DNA of 53,342 bases, counting the filler, from Basidiobolus ranarum (lineage: Eukaryota): NCBI GenBank assembly GCA_040143965.1. It is 2 parts of 2 records of this genome, joined end to end, with 100 filler letters (N's around TTAATTAATTAA, not from the genome) between each part and the next. Parts side by side here need not be neighbours in the genome. Positions count along the whole stretch, not along the records: positions 26,882 to 53,342 come from JASJQH010007006.1; 1 more part is not named here. One strand, given 5' to 3'. The position numbers were made by a program, and so were the translations under genes. The notes beneath the pieces were generated by a model that searched no databases, was not told where the DNA came from, and saw only the letters and a program-made list of their open reading frames with translations. Below are positions 4,910 to 52,091 of this stretch, piece by piece. Within the stretch, counting starts at the first letter, position 1, and the number at the start of each line of letters is the position of its first letter.

Positions 4910-5230
4910 TGTTCAAGAGAAAGAGTAAGCAAACGTGAGGAAAAAGGATATGTTAATGATCAACATTAGTACCACTTTTTCTAAACTCTACCAGATGCAA
5001 ACCCGATTCATATGTAACTGATAAACTAATCAGGAAATTGAATAAAGGCACGAATATTGTTTAAATCACTTAATTAAATGTTCATGACTTTGCTCTAATC
5101 AACAAATATTGGACTGTATATTTATATATTATCAAAGAACTAATCGAACAAGAAAGCCCTTGTTAGTGTATTATTAAAGCACATACGTATCCATGATAAA
5201 ACGGAATGAGAGTTAGTCTTGGGACTTAAT

Positions 5231-9005: not shown

Positions 9006-9424
9006 GATTGCTTTCCTTATTTAAACGAAGTTAGTTCTCAAGAGTTTAAAATCACCATCACTGTTGCTACAATAAGGCCCTTCTTGACAATCTGAAGCAG
9101 AATCGTTTGTCAGGCAAAATACCAAAGGCATAACGAGTCGGAATCAAGAAGGAAAAGAACTACGAGTTGGATGGATTGTATCCTTTCAGTAAAGATAATG
9201 CGATAACATACCGTGGCCAACAAAAGTAGAAATTGAAGGAGAAGGAATTTCAATCGAAGTCGAAATCATCTCAATACACTTTCCACATCCGAACATTTCG
9301 GCTGAATCCAAAATTTTCTTATCGGAGTCCCCCTGAAATATCATGATTTCAGCAATCCAAGAATCCCATGGTATTTCTATGCAACTCTCGTCATCCTAGA
9401 GAGCCACCCCACTAATTGGTGTCG

Positions 9425-9849: not shown

Positions 9850-10426
9850 ATGGTATGTATTTATTGAAATTATCGCCGTCCCAAGACCTATTTTAACTGA
9901 CTACTTATTGACTTAGGCTAACCAACTCACCGAAGAACAAATCGCTGAATTTAAGGAAGCTTTCTCCCTTTTCGATAAAGATGGTGATGGCAGCATCACT
10001 ACCAAGGAGCTCGGTACCGTAATGCGCTCTCTCGGCCAAAACCCCACCGAGGCCGAATTACAAGACATGGTCAGCGAAATTGATGCTGATGGTAATGGCC
10101 AAATTGATTTCACCGAATTTTTGACCCTCATGGCCCGTAAGATGAAGGACACTGATTCCGAGGAAGAGATCAAGGAAGCTTTCAAGGTCTTCGATAAAGA
10201 TGGCAACGGCTTCATCTCTGCCGCTGAACTTCGTCATGTCATGACCAACCTTGGTGAGAAGCTTACTGATGAAGAGGTTGACGAGATGATTCGTGAAGCC
10301 GATGTCGATGGTGATGGTCAAATCAATTACGACGAGTTCGTCAAAATGATGGTATGTACACGACTATAACATTGGATGGTCTTGGTTGTTAACTAACTTT
10401 TTTCATTCATTTAGATGACCAAATAA
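9850..10426 (+). CDS. CMD1: Calmodulin, 3 exons (9850-9852, 9917-10351, 10415-10426)
   Basis: ATG|gtatgt...ttag|[25 protein letters not shown]... with four EF-hands; ends VKMM|MTK-TAA. Confidence 0.97.
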
Positions 10427-10959: not shown

Positions 10960-13068
10960 TTACTCATCAGTCACACATCCATCGGATGCAGATTTGACAT
11001 TCTTAATATACTTGTGAAGAGTACCGCGAGTAACCTTGAGAGTTGGTGGGGTCCACTTACTACGACGTTCAGCAAACTCTTCGTCACTAATATGGACAGT
11101 CATCTTCTTGGTGTTAGCGTCGATGGTAATCTTATCGCCATTCTCAACAAGAGCAATGGGCCCTCCAACTTGTGCTTCAGGGGTAATGTGACCAATGATG
11201 AAGCCGTGACTGCCACCAGAGAAGCGGCCATCAGTAAGTAAAGCAACATCCTTGCCTAAACCGGCCCCCATAATGGCACTGGTAGGAGTTAACATTTCTG
11301 GCATACCTGGACCACCCTTGGGACCCTCATAACGAATAATAATTACATCACCCTTTTGAATTTCCTTACGCTCAAGGGAGCTCAACATGTCCTCTTCACA
11401 GTTAAAGACACGGGCAGTACCATCGAAATGTAGTCCTTCCTTGCCTGTAATCTTGGCCACAGAACCCTCAGGGGCAAGGTTACCACGCAGAATTTGAAGA
11501 TGGCCAGATGCTTTGATGGGGTTGGAGAGGGGAAGGATGACGTCTTGACCTGCCTTCAAACCAGGAACAACGGACAAGTTTTCCTTCAAGGTTTTTCCAG
11601 TAACTGTCAAGCAATCACCGTGAATTAAGCCTTCTTCCATCAGATATTTAAGGATAGCGGGTGTACCACCGATAGTATGAACATCCTCCATTACGTATTT
11701 TCCGCTTGGCTTCAGATCAGCAATGAATGGTGTTTTATCACTAATTGCCTGGAAATCATCTATGGTCAATTTGACATCGCAAGCTCTTGCAACAGCGATC
11801 AAATGGAGAACAGCGTTGGTTGAGCCACCAAGTGCCATAATTAAAGTGATGGCATTTTCAAAGGCCTCTCTAGTCATAATATCCCTGGGTTTAATATCTT
11901 GCTCCATAAGGTTACGAATGGCAGCGCCAGCCTGGAAACATTCTTCAAGCTTCTCGGGGTATGCTGCAGGAGTTGATGAACTGTAAGGAAGACACATGCC
12001 CATTGCCTCAATAGCACTGGCCACTGAAAAGATAAAATATCATCAGTACAGAAGTTACTTAATTGGGATTCTTGTAGAGAGCGAATTACTTGTATTGGCG
12101 GTATACATTCCTCCACAGGCACCTGGTCCAGGGCAGGAGTTTCTTACAATATCGGAACGTTGCTCTTCGGTGATGGTACCGGCGAGGTATTCACCGTAGC
12201 ACTGGAATGCAGACACGATATCAAGAGAGCCACCACCACAACCAGATTTACCAGGCTTAATGGTACCACCATAGACAACTAATGAGGGACGATTGACACG
12301 CGCCATGGCAATAAGGCAACCAGGCATGTTCTTATCGCAGCCTGTTAATCAAGTTAACATTAGTATAGAGCTACATAAACAGTAAACATAAATTAATCTT
12401 ACCAGGAAGAGAGATGTTGGCATCATACCATTGTCCGTTCATCACTGTTTCAATAGAATCAGCGATGATGTCTCTAGATTGTAGAGAGTATGACATTCCT
12501 CTTGTTCCCATACTAATACCATCACTAACACCAATGGTATTGAAACGATATCCAATGAGACCAGCTTGGGCTACACCATCCTTTACTACTTTGGCCAAGT
12601 CCATAAGATGCATATTACATGGATTTCCTTCGTACCAGCTATAATAAACAAAAATTAAAACGAAATACTTCTCAACGGCCAGGTACTGCTCTACTTACAC
12701 ACTGGAAATACCAACTTGGGCTTTGCTCATATCTTCTGGCTTAAGACCAGTTGCATACACTAAACACAAAAATGGTGAATCTTAAGTAAAAACAGGAGCC
12801 AAGAAAAATAATCGTACACATAGCCTGTGAGGCACCCTGGGATTTGGGCTGAGTAATCTTGGCACTAAATTGATTGATATTTTTGGTCTCTGAAGAGTAA
12901 GCACGAGTGTTCGAAACAACTGTAGGCAGAGCACCACAGGCTCTAAATTCAAAAAAAAAGTTTAATAGGCTTTCTGAAAGTAAACATATATGACGAAACA
13001 AACCTCTTTGCAGTTTGAGAAAGTCTGCAACATTTTGAAGAATTTAGAAGAGAAGTGAGTTGCGACAT
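10960..13068 (-). CDS. ILV3: Dihydroxy-acid dehydratase, mitochondrial precursor, multi-exon
   Basis: Presequence [22 protein letters not shown]...; [39 protein letters not shown] and TDGRFSGG motifs. Confidence 0.96.
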
Positions 13069-16618: not shown

Positions 16619-17233
16619 ATGAACGCGCCAGACCGTTTCGAATTATTTATCCTTCCTGAAGGTGTTAAAAAGTAATTATGCTGTTAAATTAGTTTACTCA
16701 CATCACCTGGGGATCTAACATTCTTTCTAGGGTTTCGGTAGAGCCTGATACCAAAATCCCCAATGCAGCAACAATAACAATTCAAAAGGAGGACCATACA
16801 TTGGCCAACATTTTGCGTTTGTAAGTGTACATGGGCAAGTTAAGAAAAGATACAGATTCTCATACGTCAGTTTATTTAGCCAACTCTTGAAAGATCCCCG
16901 AGTGTTGTTTGCTGGATATAAAGCTCCACATCCATTGGAGCATCTTTTTTACTTGAAGATCCAGACCACTCCTGAAACTACCCCAGTTGCTGCTTTGTCA
17001 GATGCTATTAACGAGCTGATCGGTGAATATGGAACCATCAGACAAAGATTTGAGGTACAGCATTCCTTTGTATATTGTGTTGTAAAGGTATTCGTTATTA
17101 ATTCCTCTCATACTTTCTCTAGTACGATTTAACACGTGCTCGCGCTGAACAAGAAGCAAGGACCGCTGGTGGTGCCGATTTTGTTGACATGCACACTGGA
17201 ATGGACACCGAAACTGCTGATTTAGACTTTTAA
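16619..17233 (+). CDS. RPB11: RNA polymerase II subunit RPB11, 4 exons
   Basis: MNAPDRFELFIL...TIQKEDHTLANILR...DPRVLFAGYKAPHPLEH; TAA at 17231-17233. Confidence 0.96.
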
Positions 17234-26383: not shown

Positions 26384-26656
26384 TTGCAAGTATCTATTTA
26401 AAGACCAACCACAAATACTAGTTCATGCACATGACCAGATGAACCCTACAAAACTGATCCCTTCTTTTGTAATCTCATTTCAATCAATTTCTTGTACCAT
26501 TTTTATTCATTGTTCCAATGATCACTAAAAATCCCATCTTAATGTATTCTTCATCTTGAGTCTTATTGATATTGTTGAAATGTAAAAAAATTCACCAAGA
26601 TTCAGTTGATTGTAAGTACTTTGGATGAATTGAATGACTCACTTTAACAGATTATG

Positions 26657-26775
26657 AAGTATTTTGGGAATCTGTTGGAAGTGGTTTGGAGAACTAGAAG
26701 AATTGATGGTTCTCACTTATTGATTTATTGAGTAGAATGTTGGCATTTATGGTTTTGTCAAGAAATAAACAAACA
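26657..26775 (+). repeat. Dispersed repeat copy A (probable transposon remnant), abutting the assembly gap
   Basis: Matches the reverse complement of 53145-53262 (CTGTTGGAAGTGGTTTGGAGAA; TCACTTATTGATTTATTGAGTAGAA; GTTTTGTCAAGA). Confidence 0.85.
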
Positions 26776-26781
26776 TGTGGA

Positions 26782-26881
26782 NNNNNNNNNNNNNNNNNNN
26801 NNNNNNNNNNNNNNNNNNNNNNNNNTTAATTAATTAANNNNNNNNNNNNNNNNNNNNNNNNNNNNNNNNNNNNNNNNNNNN
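26782..26881. other. Artificial contig-join spacer (44 N + TTAATTAATTAA + 44 N)
   Basis: Exactly 100 nt, with a palindromic six-frame-stop linker in the centre. Confidence 0.95.
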
Positions 26882-26883
26882 CA

Positions 26884-27912
26884 ATGCAAGAAGAAATCCC
26901 TTCTCGAAAAAAATACAGAGCTGGAAGAAGAGTAAGGGCTGTGAAAGTTTACACGGTCAATCAAGAATCAAGGTACTTCTCACCTCGAAATGTAGTAACT
27001 CATTTATTAGGAGAAATTTAACCGTTTATCGAGTAGATACATATTGATAGAACGAGTTCCTGCGCTTGGAAACACCAAAGAATTGTTGGATCTTTTTTCA
27101 CTCTATGGGCCTATCGAGCAGTACGTAATATATAATATCGGAAATCAATTGCCAAGCTCTCTTTTTTTTATTCATCTCTCCTGTTAACGTAGATATCGTA
27201 TACTTGACGATTATCCTTCCGAAGAGTATTATGATGTGTATTGGATAAAATATTGTTCGCTCGTAGATTCTAGGTATTCTATTGTTAAAGTTGTCAACTA
27301 CCCTAAGTCACACTCATTTCTAAGTTTGGTTTAGAACTGCTAAACGTAAATTAGATGATTACGTTTTCTTTGGCACACCATTACAGATTCGATATTGTCC
27401 AGAATATGAAACGGTAGAGGATACAAGGGAGAAATTATTGGACCGTAGAAAGATTGTTGCTCAGAAAACACAAAGTACTTTCGAGAATTCTTTTCCATTC
27501 AAAATATCAACTAGAAGTGATGTTCCTAATTTTTATGCTATATCTCCATAGCCCCGGATCCTCTCTTTGATCATGCGATTACTGAGAGAAATCCCTACCC
27601 AGAAGCAGCCAGTACAACATTCGACTCTGGCCAAAGGTAGGATTCCTCTAAATTACTGATTTTAATTACTCTACTCAACCTGTATGACTACAGTTACGAA
27701 CCATCGACAAAGCAACCTCCGAGAGTAGATGTAAGGGTGGTTTATTTCTAGAAATTAGTTGTACTAGTTTATTGATGAACGTTTCATCTTATAACCAATA
27801 GCACATGACTCAATCGATCTTGAATATTCGAGAGAAACTAAAGCAAGCCAGCAAACCTGGGCCATTGCAAAACTCTTCTCGCAGTGAGCCAAAAAAGAGA
27901 AGACGAATTTGA
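26884..27912 (+). CDS. RBM48: RNA-binding protein 48 (minor-spliceosome RRM protein), 7 exons; not in ORF track
   Basis: Spliced YRAGRRVRAVKVYTVNQESR|YILIERVPALG..ELLDLFSLYGPIEQ|YRILDDYPSEEYYDVYWIKY...|AKRKLDDYVFFGTPLQIRYCPEYETVEDTREKL; C-terminus KKRRRI-TGA. Confidence 0.9.
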
Positions 27913-28279
27913 TTTACCCATTGCTCCCTTGTAGAATTATTAAATATAGAAGAACGATTTATAGATAGATTTGTGTATTTTACTAATGGAAGTGTCAGGT
28001 TAGGGTTAGGGTTGGGCTATAAATATCAATAGTATTGTAGATTCAACTTTACCTTATATTGTAATAAATCTTTCCCACAGTCATCATCATTCTTACATGT
28101 GTAAGATTTTAATTAAAGCTTGTCACCTGTAAAATATCCAAAAATTAACCCAAGCCACATTTACCACAGCCCGGCTGTCTCCGTTAATAAGTAGGACTAA
28201 CTAGCTAAATAACTATGACATAATTTAGTACTTCAAGAAAAATCTATTCTACCAACCACACCAAAAGTACCGCTAACAA

Positions 28280-29277
28280 ATGGACATTCACCACTCGATT
28301 TCAAAGCTAGAGAATTATGGTTCTTGTGAGGTATGAGAGATGAATGTACGTAGCACATTTCTGTATATTCACCAAGAGGGTTGTCTAGGTTGCAGACGCA
28401 CTTACCAAACTCAATATCGCCTGCTTTTTACCAGACTTGTGTTTGTATTCACCTGAATATGTGAGTGGTGATACTAAACTTATTGGCCCAGCATATACCG
28501 TACAGGTAAGGAATTAGAGTTTGCGTTCCATTTGAACCAGTGTACAAATAGAAAGAACGCTAATGTTACACCTTCTCAAAACATTTAGATGGTCTCAGTC
28601 AAAGACCCTAATGCGCCTCCTACTCCAAGTGACCATTTCGTAGATAAAATTCGAAATATTGCATATTTATTGTTTCTTCACTACTAAAATAGGGCTCTAT
28701 ATTAGGTAGATACTGCACCTGAAGGAAGCGTAGTGGTTATCAGTACACCAGCCAGTAACAAGCATTCTTTGTATTCGGGGGAAATGAAGCACACTAAAGA
28801 ATTTTCATTTGTTAGATTCGATTAACGCAGTATGGGGAGGACTTATGACCGCGCGTGCCAAACATCTGGGTGTAAAGGGAGTGATCATTGACGGAAGATT
28901 TCGAGACTTGGAGGAGCAACGGGAGATGGAGTTTCCGGTAAGTCAATGGATGATTCATCACATCTCATAGTAAGTAATATATCATTAAATTGGGATAGAT
29001 TTTCGCTCGTGGACTCTCATGCCTAGGAGCTGGAGGCTTCACCCGATGTGGAGGAGTGAGAGAATCCATTCAAATCGGAACTGGAGAAGCAACTGTAACT
29101 GTTCACTCCTCAGATATCATCGTTGCCGATCTAAACGGGGTGGTGGTAATCCCCTTGGAGAAGTTGGAGGAAGTAATTGAAATCTGTGCAGTCTCTTCCA
29201 TCGTTGATGCCAAATGTATGACCGACCTCAAGGCCGGAAAAGATATCAAATCCACCTTTAAGTTACATCGTGGCTAG
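28280..29277 (+). CDS. RraA-like / HMG aldolase (YER010C/DlpA-like), 6 exons
   Basis: SCE|VADAL...IGPAYTVQ...AVWGGLMTARAKHLGVKGVIIDGRFRDLEE...DIIVADLNGVVVIP. Confidence 0.88.
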
Positions 29278-29490: not shown

Positions 29491-32400
29491 ATGTCAGCTG
29501 TAAATGTTGAACAAGTCATTCGGGTCATACAAACCCTCTTTGGTAATACTGATGCCGCCTCTAAAGCAGAAGCAAACTTATGGCTTCAACAAATCCAGAA
29601 AACGGTAGGCCTTTGTTAGTGGATGTTTCGTTTCCATCCTTAGACCTTACTTAGAGTCTACTTTTTTAGCCTGAAGCTTGGTCCCTTACAACGGAAATTC
29701 TTGGAGATCAAAGCATCGGCGTCGAAGTACACACTTTCAGTGCACAAATGCTGAGGAATAAAGTAATTGTTACTGTCACCCCCCCCCAATTTAAACTTCC
29801 ATTGTTCTCATATATCTTTGACTTTACACAGGTAGTAGCAGATTTAGGAGAATTGGACACTTCAAAACGCTTCGAACTCCGGGATACTTTGATGAACCTA
29901 CTTTACAAATATCGTGCTGGGCCAAATCTTGTCAAAACACAGTTATGCTTGTCACTTGTAGGCTTAGCTCTCCAATTAAAAGAGTGGGAGGACCCGGTCA
30001 ACCAGCTCATACAAATGCTTGGTAGCTCTCAGGAGACTGCTGGGTGTTTGCTCGAATTCTTGACTGTACTTCCAGAAGAAATTAATGGAAATCAAAAAGT
30101 TCCTATATCAGTAAGTAGCTCTTACTCCCCTTTAAGATGGCCCATAAATTGAAGATTTGGAAATTGTTTAGCGAGATGAATATATCGAACGGTCCGGTCA
30201 ACTGTTGACTGGAAATTCAGAAAATGTGCTTCAACTTTTGATTTCGAGCATTCAAAATTCAGGTAATGCTTTCCCCAACTGCTATCAATTGTTGACCAAC
30301 TAACGACAATGATTATGTTCCAATCCAAAGGGTCTGATAGTGATATCCAGGTAAAACTTTTTGCATGCCTTCGCAGTTGGCTACAATCTGGGGACATACC
30401 GGTATCCTACTTCAATGACAGTCCACTTCCAGATCTGGTGTTCGAGGCGCTGGAATCGGAAGAGCTCTTCGATATTGCCGTGGATGTTATTTGTGAAATC
30501 ATTGACGAGTCGAGAGAGACGGAAGAATGCATCCCTCTCATCGGCCGTCTCCGAACCAAATTTAAGCCTCTCAAGGAGATGATGAAGCAGACCGACATCG
30601 ATGATCGTGACCGACTTAAAGCCTTTTGTCGTATATTTACTGAGGCTGGTGAAGCTTATTTGGAACTTATAGTAGAGAATTTGGAGAAGTTTAGAGACAT
30701 CGTGGATGGGATCCTTGAATGTGTCAATCTCCCCGACTTGGATACAGTCCCTATGACATTTTATTTCTGGTGTTCTCTGGCCTCTCGCCTACAGCAAATC
30801 AGTGATCCTGAAACAATGAAGTATTTCCGAGATATTTTCTATTCCCTTGTCGATATAATTATCAAGCAATTGCACTATCCCTATGATCTTGAGAGCTGGT
30901 CGGCCGAGGATCGGGAAGACTTCTTGAGCTTCCGTGAAGAGATCGGTGACGTTCTCCTTGACTGTTGCCATCTTTTGGGGGCCGAGAGAAGCTTAGCACG
31001 GCCATATTCTTTGCTTTCAAACTACGTCTCCAATCCTGAGCAAATCCAACATACCCAATGGCAAGACATCGAAGCACCCCTAGTAGCTTTAAGGTCCATG
31101 GCCATACAGGTCGAGGAAACCGAAGATGTTATTGTACCCAAGGTCATGAAGCTTATACCTCACCTTCCTCCACATCCCAAAGTACGTGTAGCCTCTATTA
31201 TGGTGATAGCCCACTTCTCATCATGGACTGCAAATCATCCAGAATTCATCCCGTCTCAGCTGGACTATATTTCTGCTGGTTTCGAGCATTCCGAGACTGC
31301 CTCCGCCGCCGCAGTAGCATTGAACTATTTGTGTAAAGATTGTAGTCGCGTTAGTATTCATCTTCTTGATTGATCGACTGTCGTATGTGTTGCTAAACAA
31401 CCCTGTCTCTCTTCATAGCATCTTATCGACTACCTCTCCCAACTACATCCGTTCTACATCGCTGCTGCGAAAAGTCTTACGCAGAAGGAGATGCTAGAAA
31501 TCACAGAAGCTCTTGCACATGTCATATCCGCTGTTCCTTTAAATAACATCTTGCCAGTTGTACAGACCTTTTGCTTCCCGATTTCCGAAGCCTTGAACGA
31601 GCTGCTTAACAAGGGTGCCATCATCTCAGAAGAGCAAATCACTCAAATATCAGGTAAATGTTTCTTGATCTCGAATTTAAGCTTGTATAACTTAACCTTC
31701 TTGTGAGTTTAGATCTGGTGGAACGGATCGGTGTCTTCCTTGAATTTATCGCTCCCGAGGAGTTATATTTTGGTGAGAGAAGCCCAGTAGCCAATCTAAT
31801 TCCCGATCTATGGCCTCTTTTCGAGAGACTATTGGTAACATTTGGCGATAATGCCATTATATCCGAGTCGATTTGTGTGTGTCTTAAGCCTTGCCTGGTC
31901 TACTATCGACAAGATTTCGTACCGCTCCTTCCCCTAAGTCTTGAACGTATTGCTTCGGCGTTCCAAGCGGGTGGGCTTAGCTGCTACTTGAGGATATCCA
32001 AGATCATCGTTGAAGAGTACGCTAAAAATGTTCCAGAGAGTAGAGCTTCACTGTTTCTCTTGGTTGAAAACTTGAGTAAATCCATGTTCGAAATCATCCG
32101 AAACAAGAGCTTTACCGACATTCCCGATGGTTAGATTTCCTTCACTCACATCTATTCATATCCAGTCAGTCACTAATTTCTTTATTGTGGGTGATGCAGT
32201 GGCAGAAGAATACTTTCAACTGATTACAACCTCCCTCTCGGAGTTACCTGAGATGCTGTTGAAAGCACCCTTGCTATCGCCCATTATTCAATGTGGTATT
32301 GCGGCCTTTGGAAGTGATTACCATCGAGTATTGACATCGGTTTTGGAATTCTTTGGCAAACTCTTGAATTTCATGAAAACTCACCAAACAAACCCCGATA

Positions 32401-33272: not shown

Positions 33273-34294
33273 ATGGACCAAGACCAAAGAGAAGTCGCTA
33301 AACTATGGAGGGTTTACAGAACCATTCACCAATTGGCTCATGATAGAGTAAATATATTGACTTTTCAACGAATTCTTACTTGTTCAAGTGGCTGACTTGT
33401 ATGTATGGTACGTAGGGATATTTGGTGAGTCAGGCCGAGTTAGACATGGATCTGGAACAGTTCAAAAACATGTACGCTAGAGCTGGTATGGTAGAGTGAG
33501 TAGTGAAAATAATTTTCAAACCAACTGGGAAACCCTTCTTTCATAGAATCTCATCTTATTTAACCTCCTAGTCGAAATTCTCTTACTTTCTTGGTTCAAA
33601 AGAAAGACGATCCTTCCGACCAATTACTCGTGTTTTTCCCAGAAGAGAAATCAGTGGGTGTGAAACCTATCAGAAAGTACGTCAAGTGAAGCTTTATCTC
33701 TTTTTTATCTGATCTTTTACTTATCTTGTTTTGATAGATACTGTGAAAGAATGGTCACTCAGGGTATTCCTAAAGGTGTCATTGTTTACCAAGGTACCAT
33801 GACTTCTTCAGCCAACAAGGTAGCCATCATAACTTAGCCATACTGTTTGTGGGAAATGTTGACTAAAACTCCTACTTTAGGTCATCGATCAAATGTCAGC
33901 CAAATATAACTTGGAATCTTTCCATGAGAGTGAGTTGTTGGTGAATATCACTGAACATCAGCTCGTTCCTATCCACGTCGTCTTGGCACCTGAAGAAAAA
34001 CGTACATTGTTACAAAGATAGTATCCTTTTTGAAGTTGAATGCATGATATTCTCACCCGTATTTCACGCGTGTATCCTTAACTAAGAACTAGTCGTTTAA
34101 AGGAAACTCAGCTCCCACGTATTCAGCCATCAGACCCTGTTGCCAGATACTATGGCCTTAAGAGAGGACAGGTGGGTGTTTAGTTTGTCTTATCAGTGGT
34201 ATCCCATATCACTAACATCTCTTTATAGGTGGTGAAAATCATTCGTCCTAGTGAAACTGCTGGAAGATATCTGACTTATAGACTTTGCTTGTAG
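33273..34294 (+). CDS. RPB5: RNA polymerases I/II/III shared subunit RPB5, 7 exons; not in ORF track
   Basis: [29 protein letters not shown]...[77 protein letters not shown]. Confidence 0.96.
34021..34092 (+). other. U12-type (minor) GT-AG intron in RPB5
   Basis: Donor GTATCCTTTT; branch TCCTTAAC at 34075-34082, 10 nt before the AG; no polypyrimidine tract; removal restores [16 protein letters not shown]. Confidence 0.93.
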
Positions 34295-35873: not shown

Positions 35874-37754
35874 TCAATGGTATCCCATGTTATCAGACGA
35901 CATGAGGTATATCTGCGCCTGGTTTTGCGGAGAAACGATGGTAGGCCCAGCAACCTGATGAGGCTGAAGCGGTGCCGATTGTTGCTGCTCAGGCTTTTGC
36001 TTCTTCACGCTTCGTTTGGTTGATGTGGTTTGTCCACTATCGTATCTTTGACGCTTTTTAATGATATCAGTCTTCATGGACAACGGTCTCATTTCGTGGT
36101 GAAGCTTAAGGCTAGAGGAAATCAACGTAAGTACATACTATCTTGGGAATCTAATGCTTAGATGTATTAACTTACTATAGGCCACATGCGTTGCATAGAG
36201 TGTTTCCTTTATCATCTCTTCGCCACAGCGGTGTGGTTGTAGTATTGCAGTTGGAGCAGATTGGCTGGGACTGGGGATCTTCGTTTCTTGCATCTTTACG
36301 TACAATGTGAGGTTTCATCGTTTTGGGACGGGCTACATTGTGTAGTTTAAGACTAAAGCTAGGTTAATATCACTGGAAAAAGAATTGCGAACCATAATTG
36401 TAGAAAAGTGAACTTACTATAAACCACAAGCATTGCACAGTAACTCATCATTAGCAGAGCGTCTCCATAGAGGAGTGGATGTGGCATTACAGTTCTTACA
36501 CTGAACTTTCCCATCTACCTTCTCACTCTCTGATACTGTTGCACTAGGAGTGGTGCTCGATCTGTACGAGTCAGAATTCGGGCTTCCAGAAGCCATCTGC
36601 AATCCATTGTATGAGGAAGATGGTGGGGTAACGGTTGTTGAAGTCATTTGAGAGTTACCAAAATTTGTAATGTATGGATTGGAAGAATTCATTGGGGTAG
36701 GTGCAGAGCACTCTGCAGAGCTTTGCATAGGGTTGAAGCCCTGTTGATTCATAGGTACCATGGAAGACAACGATGATTGAGGAAAGCTTGTGGTTGGCAT
36801 ATTGTTAACGTTCAACGCGTTCCCTCCATTGTATGGTAGTGCGTTTCTCTGCTGATTCATGTTCTGCTCATACCATTGATTATTATATAAATAATACGAC
36901 ATAGGATCATTAACCGGAGTAGAGATAGGAGATAAAGCAGGGGTACTGAAGGTAGAGTTACCACCATATGGCTCCCAATCCTGAGGTCCTGAGATGTCTT
37001 CAAGCGGAATTTCCAACGATGGAGGCTCATCAAAGGCACCCAAAAAGGCAGATGCAGCATATGTTCCAAATATGTCCTCAAGTCCAATTACCTGGGCTGA
37101 CTGAGGACCATTTTGTGGCTGCGAAAATTGTTCCGGAACGTTATGTGGAGCTTGATGGGCCATATTATTAGTTGCATTGGATGAGGTGGTAGCCATAGCA
37201 CTAGCAGTGGAGCCAGTGCGAGAAGATTGTGTAGGCGGATTGATGAAAGTTACTGGAGCTGGAGCTGACTCTGAAGGAGTTGGCTGAGACTCAACTCGAA
37301 CAGTAGATATCAAAGGCTCAGACTTGATAACTCCTTTCGATTTGATTGTGGGTGAAGGTGCACGAGTATTGGGAAGAGAGGTCGACTCTTTTGAATCTAT
37401 TACAACAGGAGGCTTTGTAGAAGGAACCTCCTTAGGTTCAGTGGGAAAAGAACGGGCGGGTGGGTTTCTAGGTGACGCCACAGGGCTTTCGATGCCCTTA
37501 TCACTTTCAAGTTTCTTAGTGGTAGCAGTTGCATATTGCTTGAATTGACTTTTGGAATTCTTCTGACCATGAACCATGCTTTTGTGCAAGTGCCATAGCC
37601 TCCAAGATAGATTTTCAAGTCGGTTACCATTCTCAAGAGAATCTTTGACTTTTGTACATACACGCCATGTTTTGGATAACTCTTCTTCAGTGTTTAGATT
37701 AGAAAAGGAAGTAAACGATTTGTTTCCCTTGATTGATAAAATGATGGGAGCCAT
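35874..37754 (-). CDS. GATA transcription factor with N-terminal DUF1752 and two C4 zinc fingers, 3 exons
   Basis: [15 protein letters not shown] (DUF1752); [26 protein letters not shown] and [50 protein letters not shown]. Confidence 0.92.
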
Positions 37755-39390
37755 TTTCAGGTATATTGATTAGGCAATATATAGTAAGAAAATTTCCACC
37801 TAAAAAAAGTCTCGGTATTTTCTTGCACAGTTGTTCTACGAACTATATTGAAACGTATTCAGTGCAATCCAAAGTGATGAAGTTCTCTGAAGTATGACCA
37901 CAGTGTTGACCACAAGAAAGATGAAATAAGGTGAAATGAAATGAAAGAAAAGTAATCAGCTAGAATCAAGAGCGAGATCACGGAGAGAGTAGGAAACAGA
38001 TAAATGGCAAAAATAAATTAGGGACCATCTCGAGCGGAACCCAGCTCTACAAATTCTAGACTTGATCCAATCATGTGTAATTCGAGGATGAGCCGCATTT
38101 CTACATGATTGGTAGACATCCACCAAGTAGAATGAATTTCAGTTTATGGGGTTTCCTTTTATGTGACACATGCCCAGTTGGGAATTGTAATAACGGAAGC
38201 AACAAAAGCAATTCTAGAAGACCAAAAGGCGGCATATTAAATAATCGGGAAAGGTGCGGGAAGGTACGGAAAATCTTGGGGATTTCCTTAATATTCCCAA
38301 TCCATGCATACATGCATACAGACAGTGATCCTTGTGCGTTACTAATATGTCAGCAATATCATTAAGTCTTCCTATTTGTAACGTACATTTAGTCATCCCA
38401 ATTATTGGTTACCATCTGACCATTTTTCTGATATTTGCTCACAATTAGGAGGCAGCAGCAACGAGGATTAACAGGTTCTAAACAGCGCTAGCCTAAAAAG
38501 AACGTAGTCGGCCGCTCAAATGGTGACAGCTTTTGGGGGCTTCCTGTGAGTGTTAGGGATAGGTTATACAGTTTTGCAATTGCATGGCCCTTCTTATTGC
38601 CTGCTTATCCAATGGAGAAGCGCTCGGGAGAAGAGTCCATCAATTAAAATCATCAGGAATCCCGAGAAAACACGAATCCCTAAGACGCGTTTGTGAGTGC
38701 ATGCTAGTCAAATAAATCTACCAAATTAAATAGCATTGCCTGTAGATGGGCAGATGGAGTATTAATTAGTCTCTTTTTTGGTAGCCTAGCCGCTCTGACT
38801 AACATCTACACGTGGACGGTGCTTGCTTCATTTTGGTCATCCATTTTGATACTTTTGGTCACTAATCTTGCAACATTCTTTATATATCTGCAAATCGGCG
38901 CATGGCAAGGAGAAATAGGTGCTTTTGCCTTTTCTTCAAGTCATATTCGAGTAGTAGATATTGCAGCTCCTGGTATTAGCCTAGGTGTGGAACAATACAC
39001 CAATACCCATTGTTAATGGTAACTGAATGACATCAAAATGCCACTCGAATGTGCTTTCAAAAGCAGCGTGAGCCACTTCCAAAGACAAGACCTCGGTGAG
39101 TTTTGCTTTGAGGTGTATGAAATGGGGTTGATGGTTAGGGGTTTTATTTGGAATTGTACGGAAAGGTTGTGGGCTCTAACGATATGAACTTATTTTCAGG
39201 AATGTGCAGGAAAATTGGACAAATAAATAAGGATTTGTACCTTTTTCTTTCTTGTTTTCGAAATAAAAATTACATTGTACTTGGATATGAGGTGAATGGT
39301 GGTGAAAATTTCAAATAAAGGTTGGATTGCCAAGTAATATGGAATCCGTGCAAGTGAACGGTGTGAAGGGGTGAGCAAAGTTAGCTAGCA

Positions 39391-47046: not shown

Positions 47047-48637
47047 ATGTCCTCCTCCCCCGCCACAACAAATGGTAAGAGTCTATCATCAATTCACAGC
47101 AAGAACCGATCGCTGAAATTTTATGTTAATTACAGATGAGAGCGCCTCAGATTGCACTCTTCCTTCGATCCATCAGCTTAATCCAGAAGTTAGTATCCCT
47201 TTCCAATCCAGGGAAGCCTCTCAAAAAGATGTAGATAAATCCATATCCTCGCCACCTATCCTATTTCCACCACCAACTTTAATGTCACAAACATCTACTG
47301 AGAATCTGAGCGAAAGAATGAGCATACGATGTGAATATTCGCGCAGTCCTTCACGCAGTGAATACGGTCAATCCTCAAAGGCCAGTAGTGATTCGGAAGA
47401 GGAACGGGCTCTTAAGACACCAGCGAATGATATGGCAGCTTTGGAGTCAGATTCACAGCCGAAAGATGAGGGCAGTCATATGAAGCATGCTTATGTTTGC
47501 CCTTATACGGGATGTGGTTGGAGCTTTAAGAGATATGAACATCTAAAAAGGCACCAGCTAGTTCATACAAAAGAGCGTCCATACGTGTGTGAGTATCCCA
47601 GCTGTGGAAAAAGCTTTAGTAGAAGTGATAACTACTCTGCTCATTATCGCACGCACCAACGGCGCAAGAGTTTGATAGAAACCAACCCTTTCTCTTCGAT
47701 TGAAGGAAAAGATGTAAATCTTCAGAGTTCGAGACTCGTTCACCGAAGATGTAGCCTAGCAATAGGCGACGAAACTCGAGCTACAAGATTCAAGCTCGAA
47801 AGCTTGGATGTACCCACAATAAGGGACGTGGAAGAACCGCTTCCATCCCCTTCCAAAACTAGCAACATTCATCAATTGTTAAATGGATCTGAACCACATC
47901 CAACAGGTCTCTATCCCCGTAAACGTCGATATTCGGAACATACCCTTGCTACTTCTCAAGATCCCGACCAAGAGAAACCTACGAAAATCTCTAACTGGGG
48001 TCGAGCAGAAAGGAGGCATAGCATTGCAATCATGACCTCTATGCCTACTAATTTTGGGGCTTCTCATTCCCCTTCAGGTCATCAAAGCTCACATACTCTT
48101 CCACCAAATGTTATACATCACCTCTATCCACATCCAAATATCCGCTTATTATCACATTCCCAATCATTGACCAACCTTCCCCGCCATTCGTACTCACATC
48201 CTCACTCTCAAGGACAACCGCTAGCGTTCCTAACCAATCACTTCACCCATATCCACTCTATAGTTGGTATGCCACTGGCTACAATTGCTGAATCGCCATC
48301 ACATCATATCCCTACTACCACAACAGCTCCAAGGACCTCTGGCACCAAAAATCATGTGTGTACAGTTGCCGGGTGCAACATGCGCTTCAAACGCTTGGAA
48401 CATTTGAAACGTCATATGAGAGTTCATACCCTTGAGAGACCGTTTGCCTGTACTTTTATCGGATGCCGCAAGACATTCTCGCGACGAGATAACCTTGGAC
48501 AACATATGCGTACTCATGAGCGTCAAGCTTTAAAGCAAGTCCAAAATACTTCAGTAATTGCACCATCTACAACCCATTCTACATCCGTTGGATTAGGAAT
48601 TGGTCATGCTGGACATGTAAGACAGAGGTCTATGTGA
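47047..48637 (+). CDS. C2H2 zinc-finger transcription factor with two separated finger pairs (Msn2/Seb1-like fingers), 2 exons
   Basis: [15 protein letters not shown]...; [40 protein letters not shown] and [40 protein letters not shown]. Confidence 0.9.
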
Positions 48638-49559: not shown

Positions 49560-52091
49560 ATGTCCCAACCAACGAGGCTACCCTCGGACAATCCGAAAAA
49601 GGAACCAAGATCTTTAACCTCAGATGTGTGGAGACCTTTAAGCGCTTTAGCTAATACTGCATCTTTAGTCATGTCACCTTTAACCAACTCCATTCTGTCT
49701 TCAACCTTGGTTACTTCTTCTGGTTGGTCCAATAAATCCGATACACACCACCAAACTCTACGCTTCTTGATGACTAAAAACCCAACAAGAAAACTAGATT
49801 CCAAATTTGAATTAGGAAAAACTACCGATAATTTGTTACTAGGAGGATTGTCAAATAACGATACGGAAACCGGTGGAATGTCTCTATTTGAAGGATTTCA
49901 AGCTGGTTTAAGTGAAAATTTGAAAGAAACTGCAGAAACCCCCTTAACAACACCTAAAAAACATCGTCGTCGTGGTAAAAAAACGGTGGAGGATAGCGGT
50001 GAATCGTCTGGTCAACCCAAAGCGAAAGGTTAGATAACACCTACCTAATTAGTAATTCTTGGAATTTGTTAATGATCTTGTTAAACTAGCAGGTAACACC
50101 TCTCTTATCTGTAACGATCTTGAGTATGAACTAGACCAGACTGTATCCGAAATCGAGAGCACTAAAGATAAAAAGGTATATATGTGACTTCTCTCACTGG
50201 AGACCATATTTTCTTTAACTTTATGTTCCTTTGATAATACAGAAACGTATACGCGAAGAGATTGAAAAGATCGACAATTTGATAGATGAATTGACGTCAA
50301 AAAAAGAAAACTTTCTTCTTCAGTTAGTGAAAGTTGAAAAGCAGGAAAAGAAGGCCGAAGGGTTATGTAATATTTCATTCATCTAATGATTACGCATCTT
50401 TTCTCAGCACTTACATTTTGCTACAAAGTAACGGACCTTCAAGATAAAATCGCACTTTTTGCTGACGAAGAATTGGAGACTGAGATTCCTACTCCCGAAG
50501 CTGATGGTAGCTTAACTACTCTTCATTTACAAACAAACTTGATATTGAACAAAAGTCTACTTAGATTCTTCAGAATCCGTCAATGATGCCAAGCAAATTA
50601 CTTATGGAACTGTTAAAAAGGTGAGTTTCCAAAACCAATATTTAGTAGCTGCATTCTTACCAACTCCTTGTAGTCATTATATGGCCACGACAATACCGTT
50701 ACCTGCATAGATTTTGACCTAACCAGTGGATTATTAGTCTCGGGATCTACTGATACCACAGTTAAAGTCTGGGACTTGAATAATTATGAGTGCATTAGAA
50801 CGATTCAAGGCCATAATGGTAATCTCATAGATGTATTGTTCTTGGAACTATTTATTAATTATCTTTGCAGACATCATTCGATGTGTACAGGTTCAAGATC
50901 ACATCTTAGCCACCGGCTCCAACGATGGAACCGTATGTATCTGGAACCTTTCCATTTCTCCTGTGGTCTCCAATGACCAACCTCCTTCGGAGAATACCGA
51001 GGAGAATGTATCGACTTCTGGCAATGCTTCTGACCCAGAGATCAACAACTCAGAGCTTGCCGCTGCCCCCCAAGCTCCAGTTCAGGAATACTTCCATGGA
51101 GACCCTTCCTGCATGAATGTTATTGCAGGCCATAACGACGCAATTTGTTGTCTACAGTTTGGAAATAACACATTGGTATGTTCACATTCAACATCAGATA
51201 GAAAGAAGAGAAAACTAAACAAACAATCGGGCATTCTTCCTCCATTAACCGCATAGGTCACTGGTTCTGCAGATAAAACCATGAAGCAATGGGACATGGA
51301 AACCGGGCAATGCATCATGGACATGGATATTTTATGGAACATGAAGGGAAGCAACTATAGCATGTGGAGTAGCGTCGGTGATGAATATGGAGTTGGTGGG
51401 TTTGTCGGGGCACTGAAATTCTGGAAGTATGCTCTAATAAGTGGCACTGCTGATGGCGCCCTTCGCATGTGGGACTGTATCCTTTTATGAACAACTATCT
51501 AGTTCTCTCTAACAAATAAGTTTCATGAAGCCTTGACTAATTTCTAGTACGTACCGGCCAAACACATCGCACACTATCTGGTCATTCTGGTAAGCTAATC
51601 ACCTCACACATAACCTATCCACCGATACTGAGCGTGAAACACTTGATTTAGCACCCATCACCACCCTGGAATTTGATAGCAACTACATTTTTAGTGGATC
51701 CCTAGACAAAACAATCAGAGTAAGCCAGATATACATCATACCCCTATCCGCGGTCGACATTAACTCGTTGCTTCCTTAAGATCTGGGATATTCGTGCGGG
51801 TAAAACATTCGAAACACTCCACTACGACAACAGCGTAACAAGTCTGCAATATGACAAAGAAAAGATCGTATCCACTGCTGGACAGAATCAAATCCAGGTT
51901 TTTGCACTTTACTCTGCTCTGTCAATTCTTTCTAGTTTCTAAATCAAGCTATCTCTCAGGTATATGATCGGATCACCTTCCAACATTCCACTTTCCTGGG
52001 CCATAATCAACCAGCACGTACGGTTCGGATGAAGGAAGATGTGCTAATAAGTGGTGGCAGAGACAATATAGTCAACATCTGGAATCTATAA
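49560..52091 (+). CDS. Mdv1/Caf4-like mitochondrial fission adaptor (N-terminal extension, coiled coil, WD40 repeats), ~11 exons
   Basis: SLFEGFQA motif; coiled coil; WD repeats including VTGSADKTMKQWDMETGQC, GGFVGALKFWKYALISGTADGALRMWD|LRTGQTHRTLSGH; TAA at 52089-52091. Confidence 0.85.
51477..51547 (+). other. U12-type (minor) GT-AG intron in the Mdv1/Caf4-like gene
   Basis: Donor GTATCCTTTT; branch CCTTGAC at 51531-51537, 10 nt before the AG; removal gives RMWD-L-RTGQTHRTL. Confidence 0.88.

Follow-up and report, generated by a model that had tools for sequence, protein, structure and literature searches.

Does the genome of Basidiobolus ranarum, a fungus of Basidiobolomycota, a phylum outside Dikarya, encode RBM48, a factor of the minor spliceosome, and, given U12-type introns on the same contig, does this indicate that the minor spliceosome works in this species? 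The question is raised by a locus in a stretch of 53,342 nt (filler included; below, the window), described in an initial annotation as a seven-exon RBM48 gene accompanied by two U12 introns.

[quoted passage not shown] Binding of RBM48 to the gamma-monomethyl cap and the 5' end of U6atac is documented, in the accessible parts of the sources, for human only (PMC11874965, PMC11039992, bioRxiv 10.1101/2020.07.18.209528). U12 introns are retained when RBM48 is knocked out, in maize as well as in human (bioRxiv 10.1101/341917, bioRxiv 10.1101/2020.07.18.209528). The two premises of the initial annotation agree with the literature in its accessible parts. One is that RBM48 belongs to the activated U12 spliceosome and is needed in maize and human (PMC11039992, bioRxiv 10.1101/2020.07.18.209528), and the other is that Dikarya lack the machinery while some early-diverging fungi retain it: neither minor introns nor minor snRNAs are convincingly documented there for Ascomycota and Basidiomycota, and early-diverging fungi are reported to keep them (PMC10639083, PMC11347168).

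Basidiobolus meristosporus is said to have the highest minor-intron density of any fungus so far (PMC10639083), with 237-249 minor introns (237 in PMC11347168; also PMC10639083). Several zoopagomycote species are reported to have high-confidence U11, U12 and U6atac genes; in B. meristosporus a U4atac, putative and divergent, was found at a lowered threshold (PMC11347168). A fungal RBM48, the one from Rhizophagus irregularis, was shown in 2018, in a study that reports RBM48 as absent from lineages without U12 splicing (bioRxiv 10.1101/341917). As for B. ranarum itself, no title or abstract opening examined among papers on its genome and introns dealt with its splicing machinery.

Gene structure and position

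The gene model was built by direct reading of the interval 26500-28300, with GT-AG introns placed at frame breaks (Table 1). The coding sequence of 627 nt encodes 208 amino acids and a stop codon, and the spliced product is identical, letter by letter, to the B. ranarum protein K7432_004003 (P0001), whose name is "hypothetical protein" in NCBI and "RNA-binding protein 48" in UniRef. The seven-exon structure claimed for this locus is thereby borne out, and the public annotation already has this exact model. The gene is rightly described as invisible to the ORF track: no stop-to-stop frame across it exceeds 75 aa (27324-27551, standard code). The translation contains all three sequence hallmarks named in the initial annotation: exon 1 encodes KVYTVNQES, exon 4 encodes DDYVFFGTPLQIRYCPEYETVEDTREKL, and the protein ends in RRRI.

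Exon 4 taken alone (about 46-49 aa) has a single match in PDB at E <= 10, the human RBM48 chain 7dvq_I (E 1.9e-9), and in a search of longer proteins it matched two of the 39 candidates, K7432_004003 and a partial B. meristosporus protein. Since the product coincides exactly with a public protein and one exon suffices to retrieve human RBM48, the gene is not a chance arrangement of open frames. It is intact and spliceable, and by appearance it is present in one copy. None of its six introns contains a U12 donor or branch box.

The window joins two contigs by an artificial linker, N44-TTAATTAATTAA-N44, which looks like a cassette of stop codons in all six frames. Genes to the left of 26782 are therefore not necessarily neighbours of the RBM48 gene, and no synteny is assumed. 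The second contig, at 26461 nt, is exactly as long as the contig recorded for K7432_004003. The start codon begins at its base 3, so that the promoter, the 5' flank and any extra 5' exon would lie outside the sequence. The G+C content of the whole window is 39%. A tandem TTAGGG x2 (28000-28011), about 90 nt past the RBM48 stop codon and inside the contig, is probably meaningless.

Table 1. Features of the window (positions count along the whole stretch)
Feature	Position	Strand	Description
Artificial linker	26782..26881	.	N runs around the insert; joins two contigs
Second contig	26882-53342		26461 nt
RBM48 gene	26884-27912	+	7 exons
RBM48 start codon	26884-26886	+	ATG
RBM48 exon 1	26884..26972	+	ATG and N-terminal basic segment KYRAGRR...AVKVYTVNQES; aligns with human RBM48 from residue 23
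RBM48 intron 1	26973-27036	+	U2-type GT-AG, 64 nt, donor GTACTT
RBM48 exon 2	27037..27120	+	Start of the RRM (its first strand and helix); AlphaFold strand 31-38, helix 43-51, pLDDT 98
RBM48 intron 2	27121-27192	+	U2-type GT-AG, 72 nt, donor GTACGT
RBM48 exon 3	27193..27273	+	Central strands of the RRM (gene model, AlphaFold model)
RBM48 intron 3	27274-27334	+	U2-type GT-AG, 61 nt, donor GTATTC
RBM48 exon 4	27335..27474	+	End of the RRM and RBM48-specific PEYETVEDTREKL helix, modelled as helix 112-131
RBM48 intron 4	27475-27551	+	U2-type GT-AG, 77 nt, donor GTACTT
RBM48 exon 5	27552..27636	+	Linker, weakly conserved; pLDDT 52-69 over residues 131-170
RBM48 intron 5	27637-27693	+	U2-type GT-AG, 57 nt, donor GTAGGA
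RBM48 exon 6	27694..27730	+	Linker (gene model)
RBM48 intron 6	27731-27801	+	U2-type GT-AG, 71 nt, donor GTAAGG
RBM48 exon 7	27802..27912	+	Conserved C-terminal helix ILNIREKLK (modelled 173-189), basic tail KKRRRI, then TGA
RBM48 stop codon	27910-27912	+	TGA
U12-type intron, RPB5/RPABC1 gene	34021..34092	+	GT-AG, 72 nt; donor GTATCCTTT, branch box TCCTTAAC, ~11 nt before TAG
U12-type intron, FBXW7-like WD40 gene	51477..51547	+	GT-AG, 71 nt; donor GTATCCTTT, branch box CCTTGAC, ~11 nt before TAG
Four-EF-hand (calmodulin-like) protein	9917-10366		Pfam on ORF pieces
Dihydroxy-acid dehydratase	10963-12694	-	Pfam on ORF pieces
Rpb11-like subunit	16749-17129		Pfam on ORF pieces
Transportin-3/importin-13	29670-32131		Pfam on ORF pieces
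AreA-type GATA factor	36420-37769	-	Pfam on ORF pieces
C2H2 zinc-finger protein	47117-48634		Pfam on ORF pieces

Identity of the encoded protein

The locus is the RBM48 orthologue of B. ranarum. In the phmmer search of PDB with the full protein, 37 sequences were found at E <= 10, and the first of them is 7dvq_I, human RBM48 in the activated minor spliceosome (E 2.7e-42, 148.2 bits, query residues 7-148 aligned with chain residues 23-160), followed by Sex-lethal at E 1.7e-5 and 28.1 bits. BLASTP against a primate RBM48 representative gives E 4e-49 with 53% identity across 138 aa. In a word-indexed protein search, seven of the 604 candidates matched, coming from Basidiobolus, Ambispora, Paraglomus (two), Entomophthora and one unnamed JGI protein; the Ambispora and both Paraglomus matches are RBM48 by their UniRef names. 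An exhaustive phmmer search of representative proteins yielded 706 proteins at E <= 1e-3 (408 at <= 1e-10, 90 at <= 1e-30). Ten homologue clusters were looked up, and four are named RBM48 (Glomus, Diversispora, Branchiostoma and primates), while for the other six no functional name is given (Cetraspora, Amoebidium, two unnamed ones, Asterias "uncharacterized" and Mesostigma).

The protein could, in principle, belong to some other RRM family (e.g. SF3B6/p14, Nop15, or the ELAV/Sxl type) and resemble RBM48 by coincidence of motifs. A Pfam scan with a copy of the database lacking PF28333 indeed gives the generic RRM_1 alone, at a borderline 20.9 bits against the cut-off of 20.7, and numerous RRM chains occur lower down the PDB sequence and fold lists. 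However, RBM48 leads the next RRM protein by 120 bits (148 against 28) and is also the top fold match (1e-15 against 1.9e-7), so that the best match is not another RRM family, and no cluster among the ten looked up bears the name of one. Moreover, the similarity to RBM48 reaches beyond the RRM: the specific regions on both its sides are present and aligned, namely KYRxGRR..AVKVYT in the N-terminal segment and PEYETVxDTRxKL in the helix. The score gap, the fold ranking and the similarity outside the RRM together refute this alternative, whose probability is practically negligible. The precomputed Pfam family of K7432_004003 is PF28333 (PF28333.1), given as RBM48_helical in the Atlas output.

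Among the representatives whose source was looked up, the nearest ones come from Glomeromycotina (Glomus, Cetraspora, Diversispora; 53-62% identity). Comparison with human RBM48 (7dvq chain I; also in entries 9xtt and 9xu3) gives 53-55% identity over about 125-138 residues, from the basic N-terminal segment through the RRM to the helix behind it, and the terminal IRxKLK...RRRI motif is common to both proteins. The B. ranarum protein has 208 aa versus 367 in human: most of the long, weakly conserved region in the middle and towards the C-terminus is missing, and the N-terminus is shorter. The RBM48 proteins of maize and R. irregularis share with the one described here the family and the co-occurrence with U12 introns, R. 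irregularis belonging to a different fungal phylum.

Conserved positions and predicted structure

In the alignment of 80 sequences, where homologues are 34-54% identical to the B. ranarum query, six columns are invariant (R12, E28, S29, G54, E110 and K118), all of them kept in B. ranarum, and a further 23 columns are conserved at 90% or more. Many of the conserved RBM48 columns fall before the RRM; in particular, residues R8, Y11, R12, A19, V20, V22, Y23, T24, E28 and S29, all from exon 1, are invariant or nearly so. In human RBM48, four of the six residues mediating the contact with U6atac are reported to lie in the segment preceding the RRM (bioRxiv 10.1101/2020.07.18.209528).

The AlphaFold2 model, built with the same alignment as input, has a mean pLDDT of 80.1 and a pTM of 0.57. 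It contains the RRM (residues 31-105, with pLDDT 96-98 across 31-110), a long helix after it and a second helix near the C-terminus, while residues 1-20 (pLDDT 54-58) and the linker are of low confidence. The first Foldseek match in PDB is 7dvq_I (E 1.0e-15, target-normalised TM 0.80, 55% identity over 124 columns) and the second is Nop15 (E 1.9e-7). Residues from about 7 to 131 constitute an RBM48-type module, in which a basic N-terminal segment is followed by an RRM and then by a long C-terminal helix.

The other conserved part lies at the C-terminus (residues 173-208) and consists of the helix S-x3-T-x3-IR-x2-L and a terminal K/R-R-R-I, seen from fungi to primates in about half of the homologues. 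The C-termini of 41 of the 80 homologues fit [KR][KR]R[IVL], and 29 of the 80 have RRI; the second HSP to the C-terminus of primate RBM48 is weak (E 1.5 for the pair). The Foldseek entry of chain 7dvq_I has 128 residues, and the C-terminal module is therefore apparently outside the modelled part of the human chain. One may guess that the helix and the KKRRRI tail form a nuclear-import or second-contact element. A minimal RBM48 may consist of a cap-binding N-terminal segment and an RRM, together with a helix and a short second module; that the 208-aa protein is such a minimal form, with its C-terminal module being an undescribed functional element (e.g. a nuclear-import signal or a partner contact), is a tentative proposal, possible if doubtful.

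The N-terminus and the B. meristosporus homologue

As only 2 nt of the contig precede the ATG, the 5' end of the gene may be incomplete. The 208-aa model would then be truncated, with an extra upstream exon past the contig end and M1 being an internal methionine. Consistent with this, the B. meristosporus homologue K493DRAFT_23917 (P0002) is flagged "partial" and starts at the residue matching Q2, and only 10 residues precede the conserved Tyr, versus a median of 21 among 77 homologues starting with Met. However, this distance ranges from 3 to 73 residues among the same 77 proteins, it is 10 or less in six of the other homologues (exactly 10 in a Diversispora protein), and B. ranarum has everything that aligns with the human chain beginning at residue 23. 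Hence we consider truncation rather unlikely; if real, it leaves the identification as RBM48 unchanged.

P0002 is 67% identical to the query over 99% of its length and has the same C-terminal motif. It differs by its partial N-terminus and by an insert of 20 residues whose position coincides exactly with intron 3 of the B. ranarum gene, which suggests that an in-frame 60-nt intron has probably been read through in this public model. Local Pfam search of P0002 gives a sub-threshold match to DUF6922 only.

U12-type introns on the RBM48 contig

The window was scanned for U12 donors and branch boxes, using a composite pattern of a donor, 30-60 nt, a branch box, 5-15 nt and YAG. Two instances were found against 0.02 expected, and none of 100 shuffles reached two. 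Both are on the contig and the strand of the RBM48 gene (Table 1), which confirms the claim of two U12 introns in the window.

The first of them interrupts the RPB5/RPABC1 gene. Its flanking exons correspond to residues 124-162 (upstream) and 164-189 (downstream) of RPABC1, as numbered in the same 210-residue chains; the lone missing residue is encoded by a codon split by the intron (TA|T), and so removal of exactly this intron restores the protein. Polr2e is listed among the mouse genes with affected U12 introns (PMC7312986). Excision of the second intron keeps the frame and produces the WD-repeat junction RMWD-L-RTGQ...SGHS. The exon upstream of it has FBXW7 as the best PDB match (FBXW7/Cdc4-like, E 9.8e-24).

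Other U12-like donors, at 9178 and 43798 on the plus strand and at 4951, 17601 and 52491 on the minus strand, lack a well-placed branch box, and no coding support was seen at those sites that were inspected. The same absence of a well-placed branch box was observed for several ATATCCTC donor-like sites, and none of all these was counted as an intron. In the interval 4911-4951 (minus strand), the donor-like string is ATATCCTTT and lies 41 nt upstream of an ATG. The gene following this string has the N-terminus MSETKVLFVCLG, a GT intron and then NICRSPMAEAVF, and by its look it may encode a low-molecular-weight phosphotyrosine phosphatase.

Minor spliceosome in Basidiobolus

The RBM48 orthologue and the two U12-type introns on its contig make a working minor spliceosome in B. 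ranarum a well-supported, though sequence-based, prediction. Rfam scans of the 53-kb window gave no matches at the gathering score or at E <= 1, and thus no minor snRNA gene within it.

The best reading of the locus is that RBM48 probably serves U12 splicing in Basidiobolus, as it does in human and maize (probability about 0.92), since the parts aligned with the human protein are kept at 53-55% identity and substrates are present on the same contig. By homology with the human structure and with maize and human genetics, Basidiobolus RBM48 would pair with ARMC7, and the pair would enter the minor spliceosome as this proceeds towards activation (Bact). In that complex it would hold the gamma-monomethyl-phosphate cap that U6atac snRNA carries at its 5' end, occupying the position that, in the major spliceosome, RBM22/BUD31 take on the 5' stem-loop of U6. 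RBM48 would thus help to splice out U12-type introns, for example the ones in the RPB5 and FBXW7-like genes.

It is also conceivable that a true RBM48 orthologue no longer serves U12 splicing, being a relic or moonlighting in the major spliceosome via U2AF-type contacts. Maize RBM48 is reported to interact with U2AF1 and U2AF2 (bioRxiv 10.1101/2020.07.18.209528), RBM48 interactions are stated for both spliceosomes (PMC11347168), and the accessible literature contains no direct functional or genetic data for a fungal RBM48; the "minor-specific" label of this protein is not absolute. However, in B. ranarum the reading frame is intact and all invariant residues of the family are retained, while consensus U12 donors and branch boxes occur on the contig in essential genes, where failure of splicing would be lethal. 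Absence of RBM48 from lineages without U12 splicing, the abundance of minor introns in the sister species B. meristosporus and the minor snRNA genes of several zoopagomycote species, all reported in the sources cited above, also speak against a relic, and we regard this possibility as very unlikely in comparison with a role in U12 splicing.

The finding of RBM48 in B. ranarum is correct, ordinary and already known, because the gene model and its UniRef name, the existence of fungal RBM48 and the richness of Basidiobolus in minor introns are all public. It alters no current view, as fungal RBM48, the shared distribution of this protein and U12 splicing, and the wealth of minor introns in the genus are in print. 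Beyond the introns alone, it indicates that Basidiobolus keeps a late-acting (Bact-stage) factor of the minor spliceosome, which is one more consistent data point. The identification is useful for annotation, since the NCBI name of the protein is "hypothetical", and the gene helps in the choice of a fungal system for studies of U12 splicing. Only three points are mildly new: a C-terminal module that is conserved, a 5' end that is possibly truncated, and the probable intron read-through in the B. meristosporus model.

Other genes in the window

Pfam analysis of ORF pieces between 2875 and 52978 on both contigs identified ordinary housekeeping genes (Table 1). An ORF on the first contig (24981-25220, plus strand) contains a GmrSD_N domain (restriction-endonuclease N-terminal, DUF262-type; E 1.8e-13), a prokaryote-style domain in a fungus. 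The genus Basidiobolus has reportedly been discussed in connection with horizontal gene transfer, judging by the title of PMC7466969.
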